From the IMG/VR virus record IMGVR_UViG_3300027659_000020, positions 1 to 64,000 of that record: a DNA stretch of 64,000 nucleotides; one strand, written 5' to 3'. A program made the translations under genes and the position numbers. The notes under the pieces are model-generated. The model worked only from the letters and a program-made list of their open reading frames with translations, was not told where the DNA came from and ran no database searches. Of this stretch, positions 6,176 through 23,203 are shown piece after piece. The stretch comes from a virus. Within the stretch, counting starts at the first letter, position 1; each line of letters opens with the position of its first letter.

Positions 6176-6592
6176 ATGTGGTACTATCAGAATGCGCTAT
6201 TTGATCCAGGGGAAGGCGAGCTCGATCCCAAGAAGGATATCGGGTTTGTCTACTGTATTACCAATCTGGTAAATGGCCGAAAGTATATCGGTAAGAAATT
6301 GTTCTTCAGCTCGAAGAGCAAGCAGATTAAGGGTAAGAAAAAGAAGTTCAAGATTGAGTCGGATTGGCGCAAGTACTACGGCTCAAACGCCGCAATCCAG
6401 CAGGATGTGAAGGACCTAGGTGCCGAAAGCTTTCGGCGCGAGATCCTTTATCTCTGTATCTCAAAATCAGAATGCAGTTACTGGGAGGCATATGAGCAGT
6501 TCACGCGCAAAGCTATCCTAGATAAGAACTATTACAATGATTGGCTAACCTGCAAGATCACGCGAAAACATTTGGCTAAATTGCAATTTTGA
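6176..6592 (+). CDS. GIY-YIG endonuclease (T4 endonuclease II-like)
   Basis: GFVYCITN...RKYIGKK, ESDWRKYYGS, YYN. Confidence 0.8.
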   Translation: MWYYQNALFDPGEGELDPKKDIGFVYCITNLVNGRKYIGKKLFFSSKSKQIKGKKKKFKIESDWRKYYGSNAAIQQDVKDLGAESFRREILYLCISKSECSYWEAYEQFTRKAILDKNYYNDWLTCKITRKHLAKLQF

Positions 6593-6594
6593 TG

Positions 6595-6623
6595 TTTACA
6601 AACCTGAGTGCTCGGTGTAGGGT
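6595..6623 (+). promoter_or_regulatory. sigma70-like promoter
   Basis: TTTACA-17-TAGGGT. Confidence 0.55.
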
Positions 6624-6632
6624 ATCGTTACT

Positions 6633-7490
6633 ATGATTATCGTAGATTATTCTGGTGTCGCTATTGCCAATCTGTTTGCAATGAAAGCGGAGGTGTCAGA
6701 ACACTTAGTGAGGCATATGATTCTGAACTCGCTTCGAATGTATAACGTCAAGTACCGACACGAGTATGGCCAGATGGTTGTAGCCTGCGACGGCGGCAAT
6801 ACCTGGCGTAAGCAACTCTATCCGCAGTATAAGGCACACCGCAAGAAGAACCGCGAAGACAGCGGCCTCGATTGGACAGAGTTCTTCCGCATTCTCGGCA
6901 CAGTGCGCGATGAGATTAAAGAAAATCTGCCGTTCAAGGTTGTCCACTTACACGGCATAGAGGCAGACGATGTTATTGCCACAATGGTGTATCAGACGCA
7001 AGAATTCGGTAAAGGCGAGCCCGTAATGATTATCTCGGCTGACAAGGATTTTGTGCAACTGCACCAGTATAAAAACGTCAAGCAGTTCAGTCCGATGACA
7101 AAGGGTCTTATTAAAGAAGGCGATCCGGTTGCATATCTCTATGAGCATATTTTTCGCGGAGATTCCGGCGATGGCATTCCGAATGTTCTGTCGCCAGATA
7201 ATACCTTTGTAGATAGTATCCGTCAAAAACCAGTCACCACCAAGAAGATTGACGAATGGGTTAAGAATATCTCCAATCTTCAATCTGTTATGGATCAGGA
7301 GACTTATCGCAATTATCAGCGCAACCGCGCTCTGATCGATTTGTCTGCTATTCCTCCTACCAAAAAGCTTGAGATCATAAATACATTCGAGGCAGTGAAA
7401 CCAGCTTCAAACACACTAAACTATCTGATTGGCAAACGTTGCGCTCAACTCATTGAGTGCGCCGCGGAATTTAATTCTATCACACTATGA
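6633..7490 (+). CDS. rnh: T4-type RNase H / 5'-3' exonuclease
   Basis: WRKQLYPQYKAHR, EADDVIA, SADKDFVQL, GDSGDGIPN. Confidence 0.92.
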   Translation: MIIVDYSGVAIANLFAMKAEVSEHLVRHMILNSLRMYNVKYRHEYGQMVVACDGGNTWRKQLYPQYKAHRKKNREDSGLDWTEFFRILGTVRDEIKENLPFKVVHLHGIEADDVIATMVYQTQEFGKGEPVMIISADKDFVQLHQYKNVKQFSPMTKGLIKEGDPVAYLYEHIFRGDSGDGIPNVLSPDNTFVDSIRQKPVTTKKIDEWVKNISNLQSVMDQETYRNYQRNRALIDLSAIPPTKKLEIINTFEAVKPASNTLNYLIGKRCAQLIECAAEFNSITL

Positions 7491-7921
7491 AATACCTGAA
7501 AATCTACGAGGTGCTTTACAAGGCCTCTAATGCCGCTGCTACTGAAGAAAAGATTGCAATTCTCAAGGAGAATGATTCGCTAGCTCTCCGTGATGTTCTG
7601 CGCGCATCATTTGATGACAGCATTATCTTCACGCTTCCTGCTGGTATTCCAGGATATAAATCTGCCCTTTCAAATGAAGGACTTGCTCCAACCGATCTTC
7701 GGCGCGTTACCACTCACTTTACTTACTTCGTCAAAGGCGGCGAGGGCGAGAAACTCAAGCCAGCAAAGCGCGAATCCATGTTTATGGCTATCCTTGAAGG
7801 CGTGCATCCAGAAGATGCAAATGTTGTCTGTCAAATGAAGGAAAAGACTCTAGGAACCAAGTTTCCCGGAATTACCAAAGATCTGGTAAAAACTGTCTGG
7901 CCAAAATTGATTGCCAAATAA
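7487..7921 (+). CDS. conserved T4-like hypothetical protein following rnh
   Basis: KRESMFMAILEGVHPEDA motif. Confidence 0.75.
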   Translation: MKYLKIYEVLYKASNAAATEEKIAILKENDSLALRDVLRASFDDSIIFTLPAGIPGYKSALSNEGLAPTDLRRVTTHFTYFVKGGEGEKLKPAKRESMFMAILEGVHPEDANVVCQMKEKTLGTKFPGITKDLVKTVWPKLIAK

Positions 7922-12010: not shown

Positions 12011-12511
12011 ATGTTAATCTCTAAAAAGAAATCTGCTACATCAGACCTCGAGCATTACAAGAACGAATGTGCGCGGTTACGGAATCTGGTAACAAACTGT
12101 TTTTCTGTCAACCGAGTAGCTGCAACGGCAGCTACAAAGGACGATCAACGACTATACCGCAAAGTCGGTAAGAATAAGTTATTGGCGGTCAATGACCCAT
12201 ATGCGTATGATGGTCTCCGCAATGGCTTTTGGCTAATTCATGTTACTGACGGCAGCACTTCTATTCGTCAGCAGGTCTGGCCAGATAGGGCTGTTCAGAC
12301 TGCAGCTGCGCGTCTTGCAGAAGATGAGATTGTCGAAATCATCCGCAAAGCATCTGTAGCACGGCCAAGCAGTATACCACTTACTCCCGCAGAGAAAGCA
12401 GACTGGGATGCTCTTATTAAGAAGCATGGCGCCCGCTTTAGCACGCTACAGTATCCCTCATTTCAAGAAAATGCTGAGAAAATTGTAAAGGCACTGCTTG
12501 ACCATGAATAA
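12011..12511 (+). CDS. hypothetical protein
   Basis: ATG at 12011 within the 11873..12511 ORF. Confidence 0.6.
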   Translation: MLISKKKSATSDLEHYKNECARLRNLVTNCFSVNRVAATAATKDDQRLYRKVGKNKLLAVNDPYAYDGLRNGFWLIHVTDGSTSIRQQVWPDRAVQTAAARLAEDEIVEIIRKASVARPSSIPLTPAEKADWDALIKKHGARFSTLQYPSFQENAEKIVKALLDHE

Positions 12512-12770
12512 GAATAAAAGAGTTAAGAAAACTAATACGTATAGCAAAGTAGCTATTGAAATGGCTAAGGAGATAGCTAACCTGGTCAATTTTATTGGAA
12601 TGGAATCTCCCTCCGATCGTCTCCATGATATGGAAGAGATATTGGATAGCTATGTTAATCAGAAGCGCGCAGAAGTGCTTCGGAAAAAGATCAATGGCAT
12701 GGCCTATTCCAAAGTGAAGAAACTAGAGGAGAATGTGAATAATCTACTTAGTCGCGGCAACCGCAATTAA
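12504..12770 (+). CDS. hypothetical protein
   Basis: ORF in co-oriented run. Confidence 0.55.
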   Translation: MNKNKRVKKTNTYSKVAIEMAKEIANLVNFIGMESPSDRLHDMEEILDSYVNQKRAEVLRKKINGMAYSKVKKLEENVNNLLSRGNRN

Positions 12771-12795
12771 GCTTAATGAGTTTAAGGAAAATAAG

Positions 12796-13023
12796 ATGTA
12801 TACCGAATCAGAGATGACGCACCGGCTGCAATCAGCCGGTATTTTGACAGATCCTAACTTCGTGCCGCGAGAGACCTCGGTTAATCGCTTTGGAGTAATG
12901 ATCTGGGATCACAAGACTGGTGGCCATTGTCAGGTTCTCAACGGTGAAAGCTGGAAGACTGCCCGCAAATATAATGTCCCTCGCAAAGGATTCTCTTCTG
13001 TCGTCAAGTCTATTGTAGGATAA
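12796..13023 (+). CDS. hypothetical protein
   Basis: 75 aa, TAATG coupling to HNH gene. Confidence 0.55.
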   Translation: MYTESEMTHRLQSAGILTDPNFVPRETSVNRFGVMIWDHKTGGHCQVLNGESWKTARKYNVPRKGFSSVVKSIVG

Positions 13024-13676
13024 TGATTCCAGTAGATCCACACACTCGCACTACTCTGGTACTAAACAAGAACTACCAATCAAACGGTCGCTTCTTTACT
13101 GCACGAGCTGCAATTCGGCATTTGATGAATAGCCGAGTCAAGGGCATCGATGCAATGGGCAACTGTGTCTCATGGAACGGATCTGATGTGGAGAATCTGG
13201 AAGGTGTAGGAAGTTCTTTGAGTTGGGCCGATGGATCGGTTAACTTATATTCTGATCAGCCATGCCTGCGTTCCGCGCCAAATGCTATTACTGGGCTAGA
13301 AACTCAGTGGCCAGTGCCGACCATCGTGGTCTGTACCTATCACTTTGGTTATCGTCGCCGCTCTGGCCAGAATATCTCACTCAAGACGCTCTATCATCTC
13401 TGTAAAGGAGTGTGCCAATACTGCGTAGAGAAGATTCCATTTTCTGAGGCCACAAAGGATCATATTTACCCAAAGTCGTTAGGCGGGCCAAATGATCAGT
13501 CAAACATCGCTCTGGCCTGTCGGTCATGTAACTCAGCGAAAGAAGATACTTTTCCTTACCATGACGTGAATGGCCAGGAAGTGCGTTCGCGAGTGATTAA
13601 CCAACACACCGGTGTGCTGCCAGTGGGTATGTCATTCCGCGATGAGTGGAAACCGTATCTTTATATTAGCGAATAG
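13023..13676 (+). CDS. HNH endonuclease
   Basis: TLVLNKNY, CQYC, TKDHIYPKSLGG, NIALACRSCNSAK. Confidence 0.88.
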   Translation: MIPVDPHTRTTLVLNKNYQSNGRFFTARAAIRHLMNSRVKGIDAMGNCVSWNGSDVENLEGVGSSLSWADGSVNLYSDQPCLRSAPNAITGLETQWPVPTIVVCTYHFGYRRRSGQNISLKTLYHLCKGVCQYCVEKIPFSEATKDHIYPKSLGGPNDQSNIALACRSCNSAKEDTFPYHDVNGQEVRSRVINQHTGVLPVGMSFRDEWKPYLYISE

Positions 13677-13721
13677 CCTGTCGTAGATCAACGCTTATTG
13701 CACTTATTGTCCATTTAGATG

Positions 13722-13749
13722 TTTACTTTCCCACCATCTAATATAAGAT
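13722..13749 (+). promoter_or_regulatory. promoter of the tRNA/ncRNA array
   Basis: TTTACT-16-TAAGAT. Confidence 0.6.
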
Positions 13750-13766
13750 CTAGATAAATAAATGAC

Positions 13767-13850
13767 ATGGCATTTCAAATGCGGTCATTCTATAATAAAT
13801 TTCAATTTAACTGCCAGACGCCGGCTTTAAGGAGTCCAAACGACCGATAA
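13767..13850 (+). CDS. putative leader peptide (MAFQMRSFYNKFQFNCQTPALRSPNDR)
   Basis: 27-codon ORF between promoter and hairpin, stop abuts hairpin. Confidence 0.4.
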   Translation: MAFQMRSFYNKFQFNCQTPALRSPNDR

Positions 13851-13853
13851 GGG

Positions 13854-13913
13854 GATCCAATCCATAACATAAGTGTGTTATGAGAGGGATCGAATGTAAT
13901 TTGTTCTTTTTAG
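13854..13913 (+). promoter_or_regulatory. hairpin plus boxA-like/U-rich tract
   Basis: GATCC..CATAACAT-AAGT-GTGTTATG..GGATC, then TTGTTCTTTTTAG. Confidence 0.45.
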
Positions 13914-13959
13914 TTTTGACGGTCCCGGACGTCGTTAAATATTTGCCGGGCCCATTTTT

Positions 13960-14035
13960 GCCCTTGTAGCTCAGTTGGTAGAGCACCAGTTTTGTAAACT
14001 GGTTGTCGTCGGTTCAATCCCGTCCGAGGGCTCCA
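13960..14035 (+). tRNA. tRNA-Thr(TGT)
   Basis: cloverleaf, CCAGT-TT TGT AA-ACTGG, encoded CCA. Confidence 0.95.
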
Positions 14036-14039
14036 TTTT

Positions 14040-14110
14040 GCACTAGATTCATCTTCAAAGTGAATCAAAGATTCCGACCCAATAAAGTAAAGTCGAAACG
14101 GAGTGCACCA
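14040..14110 (+). ncRNA. tRNA-like element ending in CCA without canonical D/T loops
   Basis: GCACT/AGTGC-ACCA acceptor-like stem; GATTCAT/GTGAATC hairpin. Confidence 0.45.
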
Positions 14111-14115
14111 AATTT

Positions 14116-14212
14116 CCCTTCACGGTGTGAGGGTCTGATGCCAGCAAGCGATGCTTTCCGATTCGGTTGCGTTCTTCGTATCGCCCAAGAGCAAGATTCA
14201 GATAAAACCGTT
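14116..14212 (+). ncRNA. putative structured RNA
   Basis: CCCT(T)CAC/GTGAGGG, TCTGA/TCAGA, GCGATG/TATCGC. Confidence 0.4.
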
Positions 14213-14223
14213 ATTTATTTTCT

Positions 14224-14298
14224 GCACAGGAAGTCAACTGGTTAGACCGCAGCTTGCAAACCTGCTATTAGCGAGTTCGATTCTCGCCCTGTGCTCCA
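14224..14298 (+). tRNA. tRNA-Cys(GCA)
   Basis: GCACAGG/CCTGTGC, GCA anticodon, CCA. Confidence 0.88.
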
Positions 14299-14308
14299 TC
14301 GATTTTAC

Positions 14309-14398
14309 GGAGGAATGGCTGAGTCCGGTTTAAGGCAACTGACTTGAAATCAGTCGTGGGGCAACTCACCGTGGGTTCAAATCCTACTTCCTCCGCCA
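14309..14398 (+). tRNA. tRNA-Ser(TGA)
   Basis: long variable arm, ACTGA-CT TGA AA-TCAGT. Confidence 0.95.
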
Positions 14399-14404
14399 CT
14401 TTTC

Positions 14405-14490
14405 TGGCGCGTCGCATAGCGGCTATTGCAGGAGACTGTAAATCTCCCCTCTTCGGATACCCCTTGGTTCGAGTCCAAGCGTGCCCACCA
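14405..14490 (+). tRNA. tRNA-Tyr(GTA)
   Basis: GGAGA-CT GTA AA-TCTCC; apparent U1-C72 mismatch. Confidence 0.9.
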
Positions 14491-14503
14491 ATTTCATTGA
14501 TAA

Positions 14504-14579
14504 GCTGGGGTAGCTCAACGGTTTGAGCAGCGCGTTTACATCGCGAAGGCTGGGGGTTCAAATCCCTCCCTCAGCACCA
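14504..14579 (+). tRNA. tRNA-Val(TAC)
   Basis: cloverleaf, TAC anticodon, CCA. Confidence 0.92.
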
Positions 14580-14590
14580 TTTTATTTTTA

Positions 14591-14666
14591 GGGCTCATAT
14601 CTCAGTTGGTAGAGAAGCTGCTTTGCAAGCAGAAGGTCGCAGGTTCGATCCCTGTTGAGTCCACCA
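14591..14666 (+). tRNA. tRNA-Ala(TGC)
   Basis: G3-U70 pair, TGC anticodon. Confidence 0.95.
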
Positions 14667-14676
14667 TTTTTCTCAA

Positions 14677-14806
14677 TTTCCGCAAGGGAACAGGTGTATC
14701 TAGTGAATGGCACACGCCCAATGGGAGGCGCAAGCCGTTAGACCAAACCACTAGGATAACCACCACTGGGAAGGGGGCGGGGAGCGATCTCCTCCCCCAA
14801 CTTTTT
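14677..14806 (+). ncRNA. putative structured RNA with GNRA hairpins and terminator-like end
   Basis: TTTCC-GCAA-GGGAA; CTAGTG/CACTAG; AATGGC/GCCGTT; G-rich-GCGA-C-rich hairpin plus T-run. Confidence 0.5.
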
Positions 14807-14821
14807 TATTCTTTACTTTAT

Positions 14822-14896
14822 ACGGACGTGGTACATTAGTAGTGCAGCAGTCTCCAAAACTGCCTTATGAGGGTGCGATTCCCTCCGTCCGTGCCA
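14822..14896 (+). tRNA. tRNA-Trp(CCA)
   Basis: ACGGACG/CGTCCGT, GCAGT-CT CCA AA-ACTGC. Confidence 0.9.
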
Positions 14897-14898
14897 AT

Positions 14899-15120
14899 TT
14901 GCCAGAATCTGATGATTTGGATTTTCTCATGTATTAAATCCAGGGTAGGTTTAATTCCCCCCGGGCAATTCATTTTGCGGCAGCAAGGGACCCCGCTAAG
15001 TCGCGGATATTTGGCGCTGTCAGCTGGTATCAAGCCCAGCCTGCAATTCAATTTTTGATAGTTAGCACACCCTTAATGAGGTCAGCTTTAATAGACTTGG
15101 GTACGGAATCAACTATCAAA
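14899..15120 (+). ncRNA. three tandem tRNA-sized stem-closed elements
   Basis: closing stems TTGCC/GGCAA, TTGCGG/CTGCAA, TTTGATAGTT/AACTATCAAA separated by T-rich spacers. Confidence 0.4.
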
Positions 15121-15121
15121 T

Positions 15122-15333
15122 TTTGAATAGCAGCTCGGAGTGTAGAAGATTGTTTCCATCTTCGGTACGAGCACGGTCTCTAGCCGTCAGCGGAAAAACG
15201 CAGAATGTAACGAAAAGCCTCTGGGTTCATTAACGGCAAGTTTATTGGGAAACATTAAACTTGCCGGAATCTATGCGTAAATAGGAAACTCGCTGGAGTG
15301 TAGCCATATAAAGCAAAACTACACCTATTCAAA
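15122..15333 (+). ncRNA. ~210-nt structured RNA with loop-loop pairing
   Basis: TTTGAATAG/CTATTCAAA closing stem; 11-bp CGGCAAGTTTA/TAAACTTGCCG; loop TGTTTCC complementary to loop GGAAACA. Confidence 0.65.
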
Positions 15334-15341
15334 TAATTTTA

Positions 15342-15416
15342 GGGGTGGTAGCTTAATGGCGAAGCACCAGCTTGTCACGCTGTAGATTGCGAGTTCAAAT
15401 CTCGTCCATCCCGCCA
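15342..15416 (+). tRNA. tRNA-Asp(GTC)
   Basis: cloverleaf, GTC anticodon, GCCA end. Confidence 0.92.
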
Positions 15417-15425
15417 ATTTCATCT

Positions 15426-15845
15426 ATGAATACTCAAACTAAAAAAATAGTAGTTGCCAGCGGTTATTTTAACCCGATTCATGTCGGGCATATCGAATAC
15501 CTTGAAAGGGCTAAGGAACTTGGCGACAAACTAGTCGTCATTGTTAATACCGATGCACAAGTAAAGATCAAGGGTTCTGTTCCATTTCAGACCGAGCAAG
15601 ATAGATTGCGCATTGTTCAGTCACTAAAAGTGGTAGACCAAGCAATCTTATCCATCGATACCGATGGAAGCGTTTGCCGCTCACTTGTCTTTTTGAAGCC
15701 AAATATCTTTGCTAAAGGCGGAGATAGGCATTCTGGCGAAATTCCAGAAAAGGTAGTATGTGATGCTCACGGAATTGCTATCATAGATGGTCTTGGAGCT
15801 AAGATTCGATCTAGCTCTAGTATAATTTCTGCCGCCATCGTCTAA
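15426..15845 (+). CDS. cytidylyltransferase-family (HxGH) nucleotidyltransferase
   Basis: SGYFNPIHVGH, FAKGGDR, KIRSSS; stop lies within tRNA-Glu. Confidence 0.88.
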   Translation: MNTQTKKIVVASGYFNPIHVGHIEYLERAKELGDKLVVIVNTDAQVKIKGSVPFQTEQDRLRIVQSLKVVDQAILSIDTDGSVCRSLVFLKPNIFAKGGDRHSGEIPEKVVCDAHGIAIIDGLGAKIRSSSSIISAAIV

Positions 15846-15905
15846 CGGTTAGGACAACGGGTTTTCATCTCGTTAATCGGAGTTCGATTCTCCGTGGTGG
15901 TACCA
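15831..15905 (+). tRNA. tRNA-Glu(TTC)
   Basis: GCCGCCA/TGGTGGT, TTC anticodon. Confidence 0.92.
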
Positions 15906-15909
15906 CTTT

Positions 15910-15986
15910 CGGCGATTAGCTTAGTCTGGTAGAGCGCCTGGTTTGGGACCAGGAGGCCGCAGGTTCAAATCCTGCATCGCCGACCA
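15910..15986 (+). tRNA. tRNA-Pro(TGG)
   Basis: CGGCGAT/ATCGCCG, TGG anticodon. Confidence 0.95.
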
Positions 15987-15995
15987 CTTTTAGTC

Positions 15996-16003
15996 TATAA
16001 ATA
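15996..16003 (+). promoter_or_regulatory. T4-type late promoter
   Basis: TATAAATA ending 9 nt before ATG. Confidence 0.7.
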
Positions 16004-16012
16004 GCTGATACG

Positions 16013-16666
16013 ATGAAATCCTTTAAAGAATTCCTTAGAGAATCGCAATTCGCAAATAATACTCAGAAGACGCAGGTTGCCACGACCGGCGGTACCTATG
16101 AGAAGACTGGTGCTTTTCTGAAAGACAAACTGAAGCCACACTCAAAGATTGTCAGCATTGGAGCCGGGCTTGATCATACACGAGATGCAATGCACCGCGG
16201 CCTTGGACATAGTCATACAATCGACGATATGGAGCCAAATCCGGAAAAACGCAAGAATGCCCCTGAGTATACTAAGTCTGAACAGATTCCTCATAATCAT
16301 TATGACGCAGCGGTTTCGCACAATGTGCTAAATGTGGTTGAGCCTCATGTTCGCGATCACGTGATGCATTCAATTTTCAACTCAGTTAAGCCTGGCGGTC
16401 ATGCAGTAATTGGAGCCCGTAAGTGGACTGGTGATGTGGCCAAAAACAAAAACAAAACTTTGGCCTCTGAGCCAAAGGCTATGTGGGTTCACAAAGGAAC
16501 TGAGCATTCGTATCAAAAAGGATTTGACGGAGACGAACTTAAGAGTTATGTCGAAGGCTTTGCTGCAAAGCACGGTCACAAGGTCAAGGTGAGTAATCTA
16601 AAAGGCATTTCAGCCAATGGAGTTCATGTTCACATCCTTAGCAAGGGTAATCGTCCGGCTTCTTAA
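16013..16666 (+). CDS. class I SAM-dependent methyltransferase-like protein with capsid-targeting-like N-terminus
   Basis: MKSFKEFLRE; SIGAG, YDAAVSHNVLNVV, VKPGG. Confidence 0.75.
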   Translation: MKSFKEFLRESQFANNTQKTQVATTGGTYEKTGAFLKDKLKPHSKIVSIGAGLDHTRDAMHRGLGHSHTIDDMEPNPEKRKNAPEYTKSEQIPHNHYDAAVSHNVLNVVEPHVRDHVMHSIFNSVKPGGHAVIGARKWTGDVAKNKNKTLASEPKAMWVHKGTEHSYQKGFDGDELKSYVEGFAAKHGHKVKVSNLKGISANGVHVHILSKGNRPAS

Positions 16667-16679
16667 ACCATTTTCTGAT

Positions 16680-16755
16680 GGTAGTGTAGCTCAGCTGATA
16701 GAGCACGCGCTTGATAAGCGCGCGGTCCTCGGTTTGATCCCGAGCGCTACCACCA
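16680..16755 (+). tRNA. tRNA-Ile(GAT)
   Basis: CGCGC-TT GAT AA-GCGCG. Confidence 0.92.
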
Positions 16756-16764
16756 TATTTACTC

Positions 16765-16858
16765 GGAGGATTGGCAGAGCGGTTTAATGCAAGACTTTGC
16801 TAAAGTCTAGGATGATAAATAACTCGTCCCGCAGGTTCAAATCCTGCATCCTCCGCCA
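16765..16858 (+). tRNA. tRNA-Ser(GCT)
   Basis: long variable arm, GCT anticodon. Confidence 0.93.
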
Positions 16859-16865
16859 CTTTCGT

Positions 16866-16939
16866 TGACCCTTTGTGTAATGGTAGCACAGGAGACTTTG
16901 ACTCTCCTAGTCATGGTTCGAGCCCATGAGGGTCAGCCA
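16866..16939 (+). tRNA. tRNA-Gln(TTG)
   Basis: TGACCCT/AGGGTCA, TTG anticodon. Confidence 0.93.
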
Positions 16940-16949
16940 ATAGCTTTCT

Positions 16950-17369
16950 TTATAGTTCTCCGCGCTTGATCAGAATTGCTTTGTTAATCTGATGACTTTC
17001 TGCCACGAGTTCTTTGTTCTCACCCTGATAAGGAACAGCATAATTATTATTGATTAGCCAATGATTCAGATTAGTGCCGTCATCTAGAATAAACTCACCG
17101 AGGATACGACCAAATTTGTCGTCGTTATTATCCGGCTTGAGAGTGTTAACCTTGACCCAACTACCCGCAGGCAGTTTTTCGGCAAGCTTCTTCTTAGATA
17201 GAAGACCGCGCGGCTTCTCTTCCTTGTTGGATGTGCGTGATTCGGGAGTATCCACTCCAGCCATACGAACGCGCTGATTAGCTAGCACGATATTAAAACC
17301 GAGATCCAGATCGATGTCGACTGTATCGCCATCTAGAACCTTATTGACTTTGCATGAGTATTGGTACAT
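16950..17369 (-). CDS. thermonuclease (SNase)-family nuclease
   Basis: VLDGDTVD, RMAGVDTPESRT, KFGRILG; likely start MYQY. Confidence 0.88.
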   Translation of the reverse strand: MYQYSCKVNKVLDGDTVDIDLDLGFNIVLANQRVRMAGVDTPESRTSNKEEKPRGLLSKKKLAEKLPAGSWVKVNTLKPDNNDDKFGRILGEFILDDGTNLNHWLINNNYAVPYQGENKELVAESHQINKAILIKRGEL

Positions 17370-17458
17370 AGTTACAGTATTTATCGAATTATAAATATTC
17401 TTGCTATAAAGATTCATCAGCTTTCACAGTTCAATCTTAACTTTACTACTGTTAATAC

Positions 17459-17650
17459 ATGCTAGTGATCCGCAGAATGGTCGACAAGCATAGGTCTTAC
17501 ACCGCTATCTTTCTTAAAGGTGAGCAGCCTAAGATCTTTCCTACTTCGGATTACGAGCATGCTAGAATCCTAAAGATCTTCAAGCAGGATAAAGCTTATG
17601 AAGATGTTCTAAACGATTTTACAGATTATGGGCGAGTGGCGGAATGGTAG
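17459..17650 (+). CDS. hypothetical protein
   Basis: 63 aa; stop lies within tRNA-Leu. Confidence 0.6.
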   Translation: MLVIRRMVDKHRSYTAIFLKGEQPKIFPTSDYEHARILKIFKQDKAYEDVLNDFTDYGRVAEW

Positions 17651-17713
17651 ACGCGAAGGTCTTAGAAGCCTTTTCCTTTTGGAGTGCAGGTTCGATCCCT
17701 GTCTTGCCCACCA
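17630..17713 (+). tRNA. tRNA-Leu(TAG)
   Basis: GGCGGAATGGTAGACGC D-arm, TAG anticodon, variable arm. Confidence 0.94.
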
Positions 17714-17719
17714 TTTTAC

Positions 17720-17795
17720 GGTCCTGTAGCTCAACGGTTAGAGCAGAGGACTCATAATCCTTTGGTTGCGGGTTCAAATCCCGCTGGGACCACCA
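17720..17795 (+). tRNA. tRNA-CAT, probably Ile2 (lysidine-type)
   Basis: GACTCATAATC anticodon arm resembling bacterial Ile2; elongator Met not excluded. Confidence 0.85.
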
Positions 17796-17810
17796 TATAC
17801 ATATTTCTAT

Positions 17811-17886
17811 GCGGTAGTATCTCAGTTGGTAGAGAACGAGTTTTCCAAACTTGATGTCGCAGGTTCGATCCCTGTCTGCCGCACCA
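17811..17886 (+). tRNA. tRNA-Gly(TCC)
   Basis: GCG acceptor start, TCC anticodon. Confidence 0.92.
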
Positions 17887-17901
17887 ATTTCACATACATA
17901 T

Positions 17902-18411
17902 ATGAGCATTGCACATCTTCTAGGTAATGGTCCTTCCCGCAAGGACTTTGTAAATGACCCCAATGGGCCAGCATTTGGCTGTAATTTATCTGATTCTGCG
18001 TTACCACTAAAGGCAACGTTCATCATGGATAAAGTCTGCATTGGACATATCCATAATAATAAGTTGAAGCTAAACTTTCCGGTGATTGTGCCGCAGAATA
18101 TAACGCGGCTCGTGCAACAGTGCGATCCTGCACCAGTTATTCTAGATACTATCTTAAATAACGTTGAGAATGGAGAATCTACGGGACATAAAGCGGTCGA
18201 ATATCTGCTCAGCAAAGGCTTTACTGAGATTCATATGTGGGGCTTTGATTCGCTCTACCGCGAGACGATAGAATCTGATAGCCATACAAAGATGCCCGAG
18301 TGTCCAGCGTCTGCAAATAACTGGAAGAAATGGCGTAAGAACTGGCAAAGTATCTTCAATTCCGAGCTTGGTAAGAAGTGCAAGTTCGAGGTTCATGGGA
18401 AGCCCTTGTAG
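17902..18411 (+). CDS. GT29/Maf-like (GNGPS...GFD) Rossmann-like protein
   Basis: LLGNGPSR, GCN, STG..A, IHMWGFD; stop lies within tRNA-Arg. Confidence 0.65.
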   Translation: MSIAHLLGNGPSRKDFVNDPNGPAFGCNLSDSALPLKATFIMDKVCIGHIHNNKLKLNFPVIVPQNITRLVQQCDPAPVILDTILNNVENGESTGHKAVEYLLSKGFTEIHMWGFDSLYRETIESDSHTKMPECPASANNWKKWRKNWQSIFNSELGKKCKFEVHGKPL

Positions 18412-18478
18412 CTCAATTGGAAAGAGCACCGTTTTTCTAAATCGGCGGCTGTGGGTTCAAATCCCGCCGAGGGCACCA
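18402..18478 (+). tRNA. tRNA-Arg(TCT)
   Basis: GCCCTTG/CGAGGGC, TCT anticodon. Confidence 0.9.
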
Positions 18479-18481
18479 GAA

Positions 18482-18706
18482 TTATGCAAGCTGTTGCAGC
18501 ATCTTAATGATGTGCTCGGCTTTTGACCACTGGCCAGAATCGATAGCTGCAAGCAATTCTTTTTTTAGATTGTACACTATATCAGCTAGATCGGTACCAA
18601 GTATACTGTTTCCAATCGAGTGTGAAGCTTGAGGTGGAGTATGCTTGCCGTAAATGCTAGCAGCTTGCTTGATCCCTATGGAATTACTGATGGGGCTTAT
18701 TTCCAT
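18482..18706 (-). CDS. hypothetical protein
   Basis: 74 aa, minus-strand TATAAATA at 18713-18720. Confidence 0.6.
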   Translation of the reverse strand: MEISPISNSIGIKQAASIYGKHTPPQASHSIGNSILGTDLADIVYNLKKELLAAIDSGQWSKAEHIIKMLQQLA

Positions 18707-18864
18707 TTGAGCTATTTATAAAAAGCGTACTTTCTTCTGCTTGTCAGAAGTAATGGTGGAGGGCTTCATCTAAGAAGCCCCTCGCGACTGAGTAACCTGC
18801 GCAGTGGTTGCTCCTTATTTCTAACCGTCTGTTGGTAATCAATAGCTTAGGTAATTCAAAGTGC

Positions 18865-18892
18865 TTTACATTTTTAGTGGATGACGTAGGAT
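18865..18892 (+). promoter_or_regulatory. sigma70-like promoter
   Basis: TTTACA-16-TAGGAT; exact IHF consensus AATCAATAGCTTA at 18837-18849. Confidence 0.6.
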
Positions 18893-18898
18893 TATCCT

Positions 18899-19366
18899 AT
18901 GAATTCAATGCCTACCATCACCTTCACCGCTGGTTGCGGTGGTTCTGGCAAAAGTACAATGCTCAAGAAGAACTACCCCGGTTTGCCTGGCGTTGACTCG
19001 GATGCCATCAAGATGGCGATGCCGAACTACGATTCAGCTAATCCGCAGCTGGTGCACGATGCATCTACGACGATTGCCATGCGCGAATTCTACTCCCGGC
19101 TCGGCGCTGGCAAGGATTTCTTCTTCGATGGAACTGGCAAAAACGTCGAGAAATACATCAGCCTTATCACTGCTGCCAAGGCTGCTGGCTTCCAGACACG
19201 GATGTTCTTTGTTCGCGCTAAGATTGAAACCTGCCTTGCTCGGAATGCTGCTCGGACACGAGTGGTTCCAGCGGAGGTTATTCTTGAAACCTACCAAGCG
19301 CTTGAGGTTGCACAAAGCATTCTAAAGCACTACGTTGACTTCTATGAGGTTGTCAATAACGACTAA
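18899..19366 (+). CDS. P-loop kinase (AAA_33/zeta-toxin-like)
   Basis: AGCGGSGKST, DSDAIK, FDGTG, RNAARTRVVP. Confidence 0.82.
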   Translation: MNSMPTITFTAGCGGSGKSTMLKKNYPGLPGVDSDAIKMAMPNYDSANPQLVHDASTTIAMREFYSRLGAGKDFFFDGTGKNVEKYISLITAAKAAGFQTRMFFVRAKIETCLARNAARTRVVPAEVILETYQALEVAQSILKHYVDFYEVVNND

Positions 19367-19370
19367 TTTT

Positions 19371-19748
19371 GGGCGCGTTCTGGATTCTACTTAATGGTGG
19401 ACTTACTGGAAGCAAGCATGGTTGCTGGACCATTCAAAACCTGCAAAAACACAAACGGCATCAACAATGTCATCGCTGCAATCTTCGGTCAGACCGAGCA
19501 GCATCAGCTCGCTGCCTAATAACAGCGACCGATTCTAGTACCGATACTCGCTGAGTATTGGAATCGTCATCTAGCGAGTCTTGAGTGTTAGGTTTTTACT
19601 TGGTTAGTAGCACTCGAGTACACAAATCGAAGTTATGCTGAGATGAGAGCAAGTCCTCTTCTCAGAAGAACACAAATCTTGCTAAGCTTGTAGAAACTGG
19701 ATAGAAAAACTGCTAAGCACGCGGGTTCAACTCCCGCCGCGTCCACCA
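19371..19748 (+). ncRNA. ssrA: tmRNA; tag reading frame GINNVIAAIFGQTEQHQLAA** at 19457-19519
   Basis: GGGCGCG/CGCGTCC-ACCA with G3-U, GGATTC 5' motif, GGTTCAACTCC T-arm, tag ending LAA then TAA TAA. Confidence 0.93.
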
Positions 19749-19752
19749 ATTT

Positions 19753-19920
19753 ATGAGTATAGACAAAGCAATTAAACACAAAAAAGAAAAACGCAAAGAA
19801 TACCGTGGATCAAAGCGGTTTGATCGCACGTGCCGAAATCACGGGAGATGCCCTTACTGTGCTGGCGGCCGCCAACATAGGATGCGTCGGCAAGAACCAA
19901 TAGACCAGCTTTCTGAATGA
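19753..19920 (+). CDS. small basic Cys/His protein (55 aa, below track cutoff)
   Basis: MSIDKAIKHKKEKRKEYRGSKRFDRTCRNHGRCPYC. Confidence 0.7.
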   Translation: MSIDKAIKHKKEKRKEYRGSKRFDRTCRNHGRCPYCAGGRQHRMRRQEPIDQLSE

Positions 19921-19935
19921 TCTCGCTGGTTCTAT

Positions 19936-20124
19936 TTAACCAGAACCATTTATTTTCTTGAACTCAATCTTACCAGATTGAATGATGACCTCAAATGTGT
20001 CTCCATGCTGTACTCTCAAATGCTCAGGTCTGAGTTCGTCATCGAAGATGATAGAGTCATCCTCAGTAAGCTTAAAGCTGTAGTCTAGGAATGTAGTAGG
20101 AAACTTCTGCAGATCGTGATGCAT
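19936..20124 (-). CDS. hypothetical protein
   Basis: 62 aa ORF. Confidence 0.55.
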   Translation of the reverse strand: MHHDLQKFPTTFLDYSFKLTEDDSIIFDDELRPEHLRVQHGDTFEVIIQSGKIEFKKINGSG

Positions 20125-20157
20125 TTAGTTATCTATCTAAAATTTTCCATTTTATTG

Positions 20158-20212
20158 TTTACAGATGCACTAATCAATGTATGATCTAGTCTGTAATCTT
20201 CGTTCTTTAACA
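20158..20212 (+). promoter_or_regulatory. promoter plus boxA-like antitermination motif
   Basis: TTTACA-16-TATGAT then CGTTCTTTAACA (rrn boxA consensus TGCTCTTTAACA). Confidence 0.6.
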
Positions 20213-20215
20213 TTT

Positions 20216-20314
20216 TTCAAGTAGATACCCGTTTAATGAAAATAATCGCCCAATATGTCTGAGGCTGGTTACTACGGTGCGGAAATTGACAAATACACCG
20301 AGCATCTACTTGAA
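20216..20314 (+). ncRNA. putative structured RNA
   Basis: 11-bp TTCAAGTAGAT/ATCTACTTGAA closing stem; internal CGGTG/CACCG. Confidence 0.55.
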
Positions 20315-20317
20315 TCA

Positions 20318-20409
20318 TTTCACAGGTCGCTCTGTTGAAACTCTAAAGGTTATGTCGAGCGCTAGTGACCCTTGCCGGTATCACACAGGTTGACCTCTAA
20401 CCTTTAGAG
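20318..20409 (+). ncRNA. putative pseudoknotted RNA
   Basis: 12-bp CTCTAAAGGTTA/TAACCTTTAGAG; upstream GGTCGCT pairs with internal AGTGACC. Confidence 0.55.
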
Positions 20410-20417
20410 AATTTTTT

Positions 20418-20786
20418 CTCTGGATTGATCTCCGGAGGCTCCGTTCCTGAGGCAGGTTTTCTCGAACTTGTTGTCACCACGGGCGTAAGCAGTACTGGAA
20501 TCTTTGTGATAAGGAAACAAGCCTTGGCAAAGACTGCATTACGACGCCGATGGAACGGAGTAACTTTCATCATCATACTCGACTAGGCGAGTCTAAATAG
20601 AAGTATAGGCCTAGTGCGGCAGGGATAACCTCCCTGCGACTTGCCACGCCGCAGTCCGGTCGAGCTCCCGGTTAAAGCCAAAAGCGCTGCGTGAATAAAC
20701 GTGAGAACAAAAATCCGCTGGAGTATATCTCTCTGGAGTATAAATAAATCTCACTGCGATTTAGATATTCGCAAGCGTGGCGCCAC
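20418..20786 (+). ncRNA. large (~370 nt) multi-stem noncoding RNA candidate
   Basis: CTCCGTTCC/GGAACGGAG, ACTAGGC/GCCTAGT, TGCGGC/GCCGCA, GCAGGGA/TCCCTGC; no ORF of 60 aa or more within it. Confidence 0.55.
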
Positions 20787-20807
20787 ATTTTGTTCTTTTT
20801 ACATTTT

Positions 20808-20882
20808 TGCAGAGTAGATCAGTGGTAGATCGCTTGGCTCATAACCAAGAGGGCAGGGGTTCAATTCCCTTCTCTGCACCCA
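20808..20882 (+). tRNA. tRNA-Met(CAT), initiator-like
   Basis: GGCTCATAACC anticodon arm, A11-U24 D-stem pair. Confidence 0.88.
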
Positions 20883-20883
20883 A

Positions 20884-21268
20884 TTTTCTTAGACCACAAA
20901 TCGGCAATTGCGCCGTCAGTGGTCGTATTCATCGAAGTCAGCAACATCCGATAAGCAGAACAGCTATGGTTGCCGAGTGACTAATTGCGACGGATGGTAT
21001 GCGAAGCCCGGTTGTTAAGTCCTGCTGTTATCTATAACGGACTCAACCGGTGACAGTAATGTCTAGCAGAGCCCAGGACAACATCGATGAGCAGCGGTCT
21101 AAGAGAAAATGCAGATACTGCATCCCATGGGATACCGTGGGAAGCTTTCGTTAGGTCTAAACCTCACGCGGAATGTAGAACCGCGGTGTATTACTAGTTA
21201 AAATGTGTCTCGACTATGGAGACATCAGATATGAGGCTTTGAAAGTTCACAAAGACCAGCTTTTTTGA
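20884..21268 (+). ncRNA. structured noncoding region (one or two RNAs)
   Basis: TCTTAGACC/GGTCTAAGA, TCATCGA/TCGATGA, CCGGTTG/CAACCGG, GACA-GTAA-TGTC, CCCATGG/CCGTGGG, TGTCTC/GAGACA. Confidence 0.55.
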
Positions 21269-21289
21269 AGGTGTATATATAATTTTCCT

Positions 21290-23203
21290 ATGCATAATAC
21301 AAACAACCGAATAAACCTGAAGAACAAATTGCTTTCTAGCATTCTTTTCTTCTTTTTTGCAGTCACAGCGTTTGCCCTTCCCGGCACCAGCGCTACTAAT
21401 CTGCAGACAACTACCGGAGTTTCCGCCACAGCTAGTGGCGCAACCCTCTCTATCGCAGCTCCAAACAAATCAGTTTTGACATGGCAGAATTTTGGAAGTG
21501 GTGCTGATGCTATCGCTGCAGGCGATACTATCAATTTTGCACTTCCTTCTATCTCGTCATCTGTTCTGAATATTGTTGCTGGCGGTGCTCGTTCCACGAT
21601 TGATGGAACAATTACCTCTAACGGTAACGTATTCTTGCTGAATGGCAGCGGTGTACTTATTGGCAATGGCGCACGCATTGAAACCAACTCGCTTTGCATC
21701 AGCACTTCCGACAATGCAGCATTCGCGAATTACTACTTTCAACAAAGCGGAAAGCTTCCTTCTCAGGACAGTCTAGTTCTTGCTGCTGGATCAACGCAGA
21801 TCAATTCTGGATCGGTTATTACCGTGACAGAGAATATCTCGCTTTACACGAAAAACCTCGAGCTTGGTGGTGCAGTTATCAATGGCAATCTGCGCGTTAA
21901 TGCAGATGGCATTGTTAACCTGGGTTCATCTGGTTTGACATTCGTTAATGGTAATATCGCAGTTACAAATCCAACGGGTCTAACGACTCTTGGCTCAAGT
22001 GGCAATAATCTGCTCTTTAGCAATGCAATTACTATCGATGGCGGCGCAGTCAATCAGCCAATCAACTCATCTGTCTCTGCAAAGAGTCTGACGATTGAGG
22101 CAGGGACCAACAATGTCTCATTGGCACGAGTCACTGTTCCAGCTATTGTAGCAAATGGAAATAACGTGAGCGTGACTTTTGGCGCTGTCGTCAATCCTAC
22201 CTTTAGCTCAAATGCCACCGGGAACATTGCAGTGGTATCTCCAACCTCTCTGGCTGTCAATAATTTGAAGAATAGCACAGGCACCACAAGTGTTCTGGCA
22301 TCCGGTGCACTAACTCTCGGCAATATCCATGTGGATTCTGCAGCCGCTACTACATTCACTGGCTCTTCAGTTTCTGATTCACGGGCTAATTCCTTTGTCT
22401 ATGGTCCAGTGACATTTGCTGCTACTGCAGGCGATGTCAGTCTGACCAAAGAAGGACATAGCTTTGGCCCTGTCAGTGTTACTGCCACCGGCAATGCCAC
22501 TATTACTGAATCAGCCGCGCTGAATCTAAATGTAGTTAATGCTGCAAGCTTGGTAGCGAAGTCGAATGAATTTATCTTTCAGACGCCCGCTACCGGTGTA
22601 TTGACAACTCAATCCGCAACCATTACTACTGCTGGCAATGTCACGCTAAATGCAGTTACGAATAACATCGGAAATCTTACTGTCTCCGGCGCTAACATCG
22701 CAGTGACCACCAGCTCTGCAATTGCTCTGGGCAATACTGATACTGGTGGTACATTGACTCTCGGCACCTCGGGTGCAATCACTCAAAGTGCTGATACGAA
22801 GATCAATGTCTTTGGCACAACTACTCTAACTACAATAGATAATGCAATCACTCTGACCAATGCCGGTAATCGATTCGGTGGGCTGAATTTTGATACCGGT
22901 CTGGGCGGCACGATCCTTGTAACCGAGGATACCACTCTGAATGTAAGCGCCCTTCGTGCCAATACAGTTACTCTTAAGAGTCTCGATAGTGTTATCACTA
23001 CCGGAACAAATGCAGTAACCGCGAATCTCGTTAATGTCCTGGCTGGAAAAGACTTCATTCCTGCAGCCAACTTCCGCGCTAATAATGGTCTGACTGTTCT
23101 GGCAAGTGGAACCGCAGATCTCAGCCTACTGAGCCTATCGGCTAATCTGAACAATCGTATGCCAAGCATCATTGCCACAGCATTCAAGACACCAACTCCG
23201 TAA
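21290..23203 (+). CDS. secreted beta-helical protein with filamentous-haemagglutinin N-terminal (TPS-like) domain
   Basis: signal peptide ..TAFA|LP; LTWQNF, SSVLNIV, IDGTITSNGNVFLLNGSGVLIG; repeated beta-rung motifs. Confidence 0.82.
   Translation: MHNTNNRINLKNKLLSSILFFFFAVTAFALPGTSATNLQTTTGVSATASGATLSIAAPNKSVLTWQNFGSGADAIAAGDTINFALPSISSSVLNIVAGGARSTIDGTITSNGNVFLLNGSGVLIGNGARIETNSLCISTSDNAAFANYYFQQSGKLPSQDSLVLAAGSTQINSGSVITVTENISLYTKNLELGGAVINGNLRVNADGIVNLGSSGLTFVNGNIAVTNPTGLTTLGSSGNNLLFSNAITIDGGAVNQPINSSVSAKSLTIEAGTNNVSLARVTVPAIVANGNNVSVTFGAVVNPTFSSNATGNIAVVSPTSLAVNNLKNSTGTTSVLASGALTLGNIHVDSAAATTFTGSSVSDSRANSFVYGPVTFAATAGDVSLTKEGHSFGPVSVTATGNATITESAALNLNVVNAASLVAKSNEFIFQTPATGVLTTQSATITTAGNVTLNAVTNNIGNLTVSGANIAVTTSSAIALGNTDTGGTLTLGTSGAITQSADTKINVFGTTTLTTIDNAITLTNAGNRFGGLNFDTGLGGTILVTEDTTLNVSALRANTVTLKSLDSVITTGTNAVTANLVNVLAGKDFIPAANFRANNGLTVLASGTADLSLLSLSANLNNRMPSIIATAFKTPTP

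Follow-up and report, generated by a model that had tools for sequence, protein, structure and literature searches.

The window analysed here is a stretch of 64,000 nucleotides (nt), the first 64 kb of the 89.5-kb IMG/VR virus record IMGVR_UViG_3300027659_000020, whose completeness is estimated at ~54%. The record belongs to a T4-type myovirus, marked by baseplate and tail genes and a ribonucleotide reductase. Among isolates, Methylophilales phage Melnitz and Pelagibacter phage HTVC008M come nearest, with ~42% amino acid (aa) identity in one protein, and the public runs that contain the stretch are freshwater or lake metagenomes. ARAGORN and Rfam agree on 18 transfer RNA (tRNA) genes and one transfer-messenger RNA (tmRNA) gene, all of them + strand genes within 13960-20882, and these 18 are all the tRNAs of the record. 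As an original prediction from the sequence had stated, they are interleaved with non-coding, mostly stem-closed blocks, designated here as r1 to r11 (Table 1). None of the blocks named in that prediction contains an open reading frame (ORF) with a family match, and the sequence matches of the region to isolate phages are confined to tRNAs. The comparative and transcript data described below indicate that the blocks between the tRNAs are probably, for the most part, genuine phage genes for structured non-coding RNAs that are excised like tRNAs and behave as exchangeable cassettes.

Table 1 Features of the RNA region and its surroundings.
Feature	Positions	Strand	Remarks
HNH gene	13023-13676		beside array 1
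boxA-like motif TTGTTCTTTTTA	13901-13912	+	heads array 1
r1	13916-13954	+	short weak block; overlaps a sigma-70-like promoter match
r2	14040-14110	+	71-nt stem-closed unit after tRNA-Thr; 3' end ACCA
r3	14116-14212	+	unsupported block
r4	14677-14806	+	hairpin domain and terminator-like hairpin with T-run (14779-14797)
r5a	14899-14974	+	stem-closed; specific to this phage, other sequence in relatives
r5b	14975-15046	+	conserved structured RNA, short form
r5c	15054-15120	+	conserved hairpin-in-stem unit; 10-bp closing stem
r6	15122-15333	+	212-nt multi-helix RNA; 89% identical in L033
Cytidylyltransferase gene	15426-15845		
Methyltransferase gene	16013-16666		
SNase gene	16950-17417	-	
Zeta/PNK-like P-loop kinase gene	18899-19366		155 aa; inside the array, just upstream of tmRNA
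Promoter-like site TTTACA-16-TATGAT	20158-20185	+	heads the second RNA unit; 10/12 consensus matches; consensus match only
r7	20214-20318	+	~105-nt ultra-conserved RNA
r8	20318-20417	+	~100-nt ultra-conserved RNA
r9a	20418-20576	+	long imperfect hairpin upstream of Pistol; variable
Pistol self-cleaving ribozyme	20577-20643	+	RF02679; 54.5 bits (gathering score 34.5); E 3.6e-07; model 1-68 of 68
r9c	20644-20786	+	downstream of Pistol; variable
Second boxA-like motif	20790-20801	+	directly before tRNA-Met
tRNA-Met	20808-20882	+	within the RNA-only unit; ARAGORN, Rfam
r10+r11	20897-21259	+	one abundant discrete ~360-nt RNA; metatranscriptome contigs

Homologues of r7 were collected by exact words: a 21-mer retrieved four IMG/VR contigs, and a 20-mer retrieved 18 real JGI/ENA contigs and one contig of a metagenome-assembled genome (MAG). 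The 20-mer matches in L039 and L044 lie in coding sequence and were discarded as chance hits. By BLAST over about 20 contigs with 11 sequence variants, r7 (20214-20320) is 92.5-98% identical at every locus (92.5% in L033, a closer relative of the phage) except L043, where the value is 88.7%. r8 is 94-98% identical in L021, L024, L029, L032, L035 and L040, where it is sited apart from r7. The borders originally proposed for r7 (20216-20314) and r8 (20318-20409) fall within a few bases of the borders of 94-98% identity. The tRNAs common to the window and the contigs with r7 or r8 are mostly 67-89% identical, with matches above 90% only for tRNA-Tyr with L033 (94%) and tRNA-Glu with L040 (92%), and the flanks of the r7 and r8 homologues do not align to the window at all. 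The comparison supports a stronger conservation of r7 and r8 than of the tRNAs, maintained across unrelated contexts.

The r7 variation also carries structural information. Across ten distinct sequences and 25 pairs, two changes are compensatory (in the closing stem of L043 and an inner helix of L033) and four are one-sided and compatible. Pairing is kept in 99.2% of the cells, compared with 22-35% when the partners are slid, and the observed covariation was reached by 16 of 500 shuffles. About 90% of the r7 columns are invariant, long unpaired stretches included, and the variation is limited to a few columns. Columns 98 and 104 of the alignment (A11) occur in all four allele combinations, and this speaks against one very recent spread; the pattern indicates long divergence under strong constraint. 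In most contigs r7 directly follows tRNA-Lys(UUU), usually 0-1 nt from the tRNA 3' end, while in two contigs it follows tRNA-Met and in others it lies 125-300 nt beyond a tRNA; in the window it is preceded by its own promoter-like site. r8 is always downstream of tRNA-Glu, 14 to 287 nt away with other units in between. The r7 homologues differ by indels of 1, 2 and 5 nt (the sole ATG frame has a premature stop in L033), r8 has a 1-nt insertion in L024, and r6 differs from its L033 counterpart by two 1-nt indels; coding function is therefore ruled out for these units on either strand. The most diverged r7 lies on L043, a 3.2-kb contig that is probably a phage fragment and also carries tRNA-Lys, tRNA-Thr, r5b and tRNA-Glu. 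Its binning in a Flavobacteriales MAG is at best a faint hint of the host, too weak to name one. r8 was also inspected as an HDV-like (theta) ribozyme and rejected as such: P3/L3 cannot be formed by the 11 nt (20353-63) that separate the candidate P2 from P1', and an A>C change in L040 breaks the candidate P1 (GGUCGCU with AGUGACC) without compensation.

The units of array 1 that recur in relatives show compensatory changes as well. Between the window and L033, the 63 predicted pairs of r6 include three compensatory and six one-sided compatible changes and no broken pair. The pair 15239-15261 reads A-U in the window and C-G in L033, while a variant contig of run X20 has U-A, and the pair 15271-15284 changes from C-G to U-A in both L033 and the X20 variant contig. 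The loop-loop complementarity that had been claimed for the blocks is present in r6 (UGUUUCC at 15151-57 with GGAAACA at 15248-54) and unchanged in L033, whereas the pseudoknot originally proposed for r8 is broken in L040 and uncompensated. r6 holds GGAGUGUAG twice (15137-15145 and 15296-15304), and either copy pairs with CUACAC at 15320-15326 near the 3' end. L033 carries G>A in the first copy and C>U in the 3' strand; the pairing of the first copy is thereby fully compensated and that of the second stays wobble-compatible, so that alternative pairings are possible.

The proposed division of r5 into three units was borne out by the relatives, in which r5a is swapped while r5b and r5c are conserved. 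r5a is replaced in L033, and the DNA runs X3 and X5 have a 38-nt stretch instead (joint 14902>14981). r5b (14981-15041) is 81-84% identical by BLAST over 61-64 nt in five loci including L021, L023, L024 and L038, and nearly identical in L033 as read from the alignment. Its pairs in six sequences comprise two compensatory and three one-sided compatible cases; by inspection, the closing helix differs in sequence between the forms and pairs in both. Most relatives have an extra 5' hairpin on r5b that is missing from the window. The third arm of r5b looks like the T-arm of a tRNA into which one A has been inserted (GCTGG-TATCGAGT-CCAGC in L033), which suggests a tRNA-derived origin, and no tRNA model recognises the unit. 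Within r5c, the only differences from L033 are T15082A and A15095T, which jointly preserve one base pair. Compensatory pairs among homologues were thus found for r6 (three), r5b (two), r7 (two) and r5c (one).

Expression was examined with Logan contigs of two RNA runs (X19 and X20, lake metatranscriptomes of different studies) and the DNA runs X3 and X5, placed on 12500-22500. In X19, a 384-nt contig over 20897-21259 has a depth of 656 and an Illumina adapter directly behind 21259; in X20, a contig over 20900-21086 has a depth of 959 and an adapter directly before 20900. The adapter types on both sides are as expected of a + strand RNA if the library is of the dUTP type, which is our inference. 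Same-strain contigs on neighbouring phage genes have depths of 3-12 and the phage tmRNA 10.5-26.5, placing r10-11 at 50-90 fold above the neighbouring phage mRNAs. The DNA runs are flat over the same region (depth 6-9), and DNA carry-over therefore cannot explain the signal. The accumulation of a discrete RNA was thereby observed in two lake metatranscriptomes, and no other phage transcript detected in the region in situ comes close to r10-11 in abundance. Variant contigs of r7 and r6 in the RNA runs have an mRNA-like depth of 3-10, which for RNAs of 100-200 nt speaks neither for nor against abundance, and a lack of cover elsewhere carries no weight as evidence. Contigs at 14504-14837 with depths of 508 and 1994 were rejected as phage expression; they are tRNA-Ala-like contigs of other organisms with unrelated loose ends.

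The contigs also define the molecule. Its 5' end lies 15-18 nt past tRNA-Met and its 3' end one base short of the T-run 21260-21266. r10 (20884-21109) and r11 (21110-21268) had been taken as separate closed units, but the contigs represent one RNA; its 5' end (~20897-20900) coincides with the inner edge of the 14-bp closing stem proposed for r10 (20884-97 with 21096-109), and this stem is therefore absent from the mature RNA. No Rfam match was obtained for r10-11 (cmscan, E up to 5). The natural variants at 21023, 21095, 21213 and 21218 are all at predicted unpaired positions and hence give no structural information. Directly after the abundant RNA, 21290-23203 encodes a 637-aa, filamentous-haemagglutinin-like protein with a TPS secretion domain and DUF5649 repeats, for which a pattern search of IMG/VR found no relative.

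The original prediction had recognised no catalogued ribozyme among the blocks and had treated r9 (20418-20786) as a single one. Both points are contradicted by the match to the Pistol family, which lies between two variable parts. In the covariance-model alignment, P1 is formed by ACUCG with CGAGU, P3 has 7 bp, and the conserved junction residues are present. The 6-bp pseudoknot, which links the P1 loop to the P2/P3 internal loop, pairs ACUAGG (20582-87) with CCUAGU (20610-15); both strands differ from the consensus, with all six pairs kept. From this model alignment the ribozyme is predicted to be active and to cut between G20638 and A20639. The stretch 20545-20649 is unchanged in a relative with swapped flanks. 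The joint 20359>20545 in X20 and X3 skips r9a, for which no homologue was found in the loci compared, and 20650-20754 of r9c is replaced by 20 nt in a relative (X3 joint).

Folding z-scores were computed block by block against dinucleotide shuffles. r6 (-4.3), r9 (-3.6), r8 (-3.2), r2 (-3.05) and r11 (-3.0) are significant, r4 (moderate), r7 and r10 have scores of -2.3, -2.3 and -2.1, and r1 (-0.55), r5 as a whole (-0.63) and r3 (-1.0) are not significant. Since the scores are uneven across the blocks, energy alone gives a mixed verdict, and the comparative evidence is the stronger. The weaker blocks were also considered individually. r1 overlaps a promoter-like match (TTGACG-16-AATATT at 13916-13943), and an r1-like stretch without covariation is seen by eye in L033. 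r2 had been described as a CCA-ending tRNA mimic. Its counterpart in L033 has the same place, a similar layout and ~63% likeness and does not share the 7-nt loop or the ACCA end, so the mimic feature is missing from the closest relative; nor did ARAGORN call r2 a tRNA at relaxed settings. Neither r3 nor r4 has a homologue among the loci compared. A complementarity of 15/16 nt between the r7 loop and the r4 head is conserved in no other locus and was taken as chance.

Several observations weigh against reading all blocks as RNA genes. No significant fold and no homologues were found for r1, r3, r5a, r9a and r9c, and these blocks, together with r4, could be mere spacers or signals. r8 is near-invariant, and its pairs include no compensatory, three compatible and three broken cases. 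The covariation counts are based on 2-10 sequences. Over its full length, r10-11 does not surpass shuffles in folding (z -1.33), and no homologue was found in IMG/VR with three exact 21-23-mers, one of which spans a variable site. The RNA data are assembled contigs, which allow no fine ranking of expression and cannot show the ends of the ~100-nt units, a class under-sampled by standard libraries. In the ribozyme, P2 is weak (GAAG with CUUG, three pairs and a G.G), and the scissile dinucleotide retains its G but has A at +1 in place of the consensus U, where the family has G-U. In Pistol crystal structures, the +1 U makes a U.U wobble with a conserved U (PMC6795133); A20639 could instead form a Watson-Crick pair with that residue. 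The description of the blocks as structured RNAs thus holds for many of them, given the conservation, the compensatory changes and the abundance of r10-11, but does not extend to r1, r3, r4, r5a and the Pistol flanks, which are unconserved.

These weak blocks give some substance to the view that the blocks are only structured spacers or signals (insulators of tRNA folding, RNase entry sites, promoters or terminators) with no function as free RNA. r5a, r9a and r9c are swapped or deleted in relatives, r1 coincides with a promoter-like match, r4 closes with a terminator-like site, and the folding scores of r1, r3 and r5 are not significant. However, a spacer does not need the constraint seen in r7 and r8, which are ~90% invariant including unpaired stretches while the tRNAs differ by 10-30%. 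In addition, r10-11 accumulates as a discrete RNA far above the neighbouring mRNAs, and the units keep their identity beside different tRNAs. As an account of the blocks in general, we consider this view unlikely.

A more restricted alternative concerns the RNA at 20897-21259, which could be a terminated cis-regulatory leader (riboswitch-like or an attenuator) of the TPS/FHA-like gene at 21290. Its 3' end abuts the T-run, 30 nt before the ATG of the gene, the mRNA contig begins only at 21310, and terminated leaders commonly exceed the full-length mRNAs. However, the RNA belongs to an RNA-only unit, where it follows a tRNA, and its 5' end, which has no promoter match, seems to be processed. By eye, the hairpin preceding the T-run is weak; no Rfam riboswitch was matched, and for a leader an excess of 50-90 fold would be extreme. 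A leader is accordingly quite improbable.

The relatives differ from the window by whole units. L033 has 26 tRNAs in the same bead-on-string layout. Other contigs have r7 fused straight to other tRNA 3' ends and then tRNA-Glu, and one relative has no r5c and r6 (15052-15337). In all, r5b, r5c, r6, r7 and r8 recur in other freshwater phage tRNA arrays in shuffled order and with different neighbouring tRNAs. This recurrence fits the proposal of an RNA "toolkit" transcribed with the tRNAs, which does not reach the unconserved r1, r3, r4, r5a and Pistol flanks. In L033, a ~190-nt unit is inserted between r5c and r6, and at least ten further stem-closed non-coding units are present between tRNAs in L033:5846-11231 (e.g. 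6353-6694, 6781-6966, 7042-7255 and 7332-7556); none of these extra units matches Rfam.

Such exchange could also be expected if r7, r8 and similar units were selfish mobile DNA cassettes, either like miniature inverted-repeat transposable elements or carried by homing endonucleases, that spread recently among co-infecting phages. The sharp identity borders, an identity above that of the flanking tRNAs, the unrelated contexts, the closing stems resembling terminal inverted repeats and the HNH gene adjoining array 1 are all in line with this. On the other hand, the units are single copy at each locus with no extra copies found by the covariance model, always lie in sense orientation inside tRNA arrays, and have no visible target-site duplications. 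Substitutions recur at few columns, two of which show all four allele combinations, and changes in stems are compensatory or wobble-compatible. Taken together, mobile DNA is a very unlikely explanation. Decay or remodelling of tRNA genes into pseudogenes, to which the T-arm-like third arm of r5b, the acceptor-like stem and ACCA end of r2 and the tRNA size of the units might point, is least credible of all, given that no block was matched by RF00005 (E up to 5) or by ARAGORN at 85% thresholds with introns allowed, that compensatory changes show continuing selection on non-tRNA structures, and that r6 (212 nt) and r10-11 (360 nt) by far exceed the length of a tRNA.

On the preferred reading, that of RNA genes excised like tRNAs, the locus would consist of two stable-RNA transcription units, array 1 starting at ~13.9 kb and array 2 extending from a promoter at ~20160 to the T-run at ~21260. 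The tRNAs, the tmRNA and the other structured RNAs would be beads on one precursor string, presumably co-transcribed, in which the ends of each unit pair with each other and A/U-rich spacers part the units. The host enzymes of tRNA maturation (RNase P, RNase E and 3' trimming) would cut the precursor to discrete RNAs, with one extra cut by Pistol between G20638 and A20639. r5b, r5c, r6, r7 and r8 would be modular cassettes common to freshwater phages, and the other positions would be phage-specific. The motif TTGTTCTTTTTA has exactly two copies in the 64 kb, both on the + strand and upstream of a tRNA, and recurs within the tRNA arrays of nine related loci (e.g. L021:2226-2237), often a few bases after promoter-like sites. 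We take it to resemble the boxA of rrn operons, and by analogy the long untranslated transcript may undergo antitermination of the boxA type. Bacterial rrn operons are similar in being untranslated multi-RNA transcripts with a boxA motif near the head, tRNAs and end-pairing stems; the locus differs in having no rRNA and a boxA-like motif two positions off that of E. coli.

As to function, the original prediction had suggested decoys or antitoxin mimics against host anticodon nucleases, a possible role on which the present data are neutral. Our best guess is that the RNAs would be RNA-level agents of host take-over that bind or mimic conserved components of host translation or RNA processing, because r7 and r8 are ~90% invariant across phages whose tRNAs differ by 10-30%. 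A more far-reaching proposal is that r7 or r8 represents a new class of catalytic or target-mimicking RNA and the 360-nt RNA a new RNA of the ROOL/GOLLD kind, together forming a widespread exchangeable toolkit of freshwater phage tRNA islands; we regard this as conceivable but doubtful. For example, r7 could be a new 5'-end-cleaving ribozyme that frees a tRNA 3' end, an idea based on its usual start 0-1 nt after the CCA end of a tRNA in a ribozyme-bearing neighbourhood.

Small stable RNAs between phage tRNA genes have a precedent in the species 1 and species 2 RNAs of T4 (rnaC and rnaD), which are co-transcribed and matured with the tRNAs. The present case is similar in having small non-tRNA RNAs within the tRNA cluster of a T4-type myovirus. 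It differs in having no sequence similarity to any isolate phage, many more units, cassettes common to different phages, a ribozyme and an abundant 360-nt RNA. GOLLD and ROOL are phage-encoded near tRNA islands and can be extremely abundant, ROOL reportedly reaching the level of 16S rRNA; GOLLD env-38 is downstream of a tRNA-Met, and some GOLLDs hold tRNAs in a linker (PMC12286853). Here, a ~1-kb RNA-only unit likewise surrounds tRNA-Met and has a highly abundant 3' part, whereas the abundant RNA is ~360 nt compared with 580-800 nt or more, and the 5' part consists of separable units in series, which occur independently of each other in other phages. Theta (minimal HDV-like) ribozymes beside gut-phage tRNAs have been proposed to spare host RNases in processing (PMC10879173). 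The window shares with them a self-cleaving ribozyme within a phage tRNA transcription unit, but the ribozyme is of the Pistol class, ~165 nt upstream of a tRNA rather than at its 3' end, and from freshwater rather than the gut. With its P1, 6-bp pseudoknot, P3 and junction residues, 20577-20643 matches the Pistol family, which is reported to occur often near phage genes (PMC6154101). The family is known mainly from Firmicutes, whereas this member is in a tRNA and non-coding RNA operon of a freshwater myophage, and as far as we could find it is the first Pistol placed within a tRNA operon.

Family searches gave no assignment for the remaining blocks. In the cmscan of 13600-21400 against 4227 Rfam families (E up to 5), Pistol was matched, the other blocks gave only chance-level weak hits, and neither GOLLD nor ROOL was listed. 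A search of the whole record for ROOL (E up to 10) found none, and the control genomes were likewise unmatched. No Rfam family besides tRNA was found in 19 related loci. The nearest IMG/VR kin by protein (G001 and G003, 67% aa identity) have gapped tRNA arrays, and no unit homologues were found there by BLAST or with the r7 covariance model. Some 10,000 candidate structured RNAs have been catalogued from IMG/VR (PMC10690425), and these may already include the present units. What is new at the locus is several small families unmatched in Rfam, two of which outdo the tRNAs in conservation, a Pistol ribozyme in such an operon, and a 360-nt RNA with in situ abundance.

The usual annotation of a phage tRNA island consists of tRNAs and "intergenic" DNA. 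In this island, much of the "intergenic" DNA appears to encode RNAs under selection equal to or above that of the tRNAs themselves. The conserved units common to uncultured lake phages are concrete candidates for new classes of functional RNA (ribozymes, mimics or sponges), and they extend the problem of tRNA-island RNAs, as posed by T4 species 1 and 2, GOLLD and ROOL, to small and tractable molecules with defined borders.

Some neighbouring features deserve mention. Homologues of the cytidylyltransferase elsewhere are 94-97% identical. The P-loop kinase is assigned to zeta-toxin/AAA_33 in Pfam and to polynucleotide kinase in PHROGs; it is speculative that it could act as a 5'-OH kinase on ribozyme or nuclease products. 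The 420 nt between tRNA-Arg and the kinase gene (18479-18898) contain only tiny ORFs, have a folding z of -2.7 and may contain additional RNA units. Outside the RNA region, 35497-37539 encodes a 680-aa protein with an end-to-end match to phrog_35576; its homologues, which have 42% identity and are found in Melnitz and HTVC008M, carry the annotation adenylate/guanylate cyclase.

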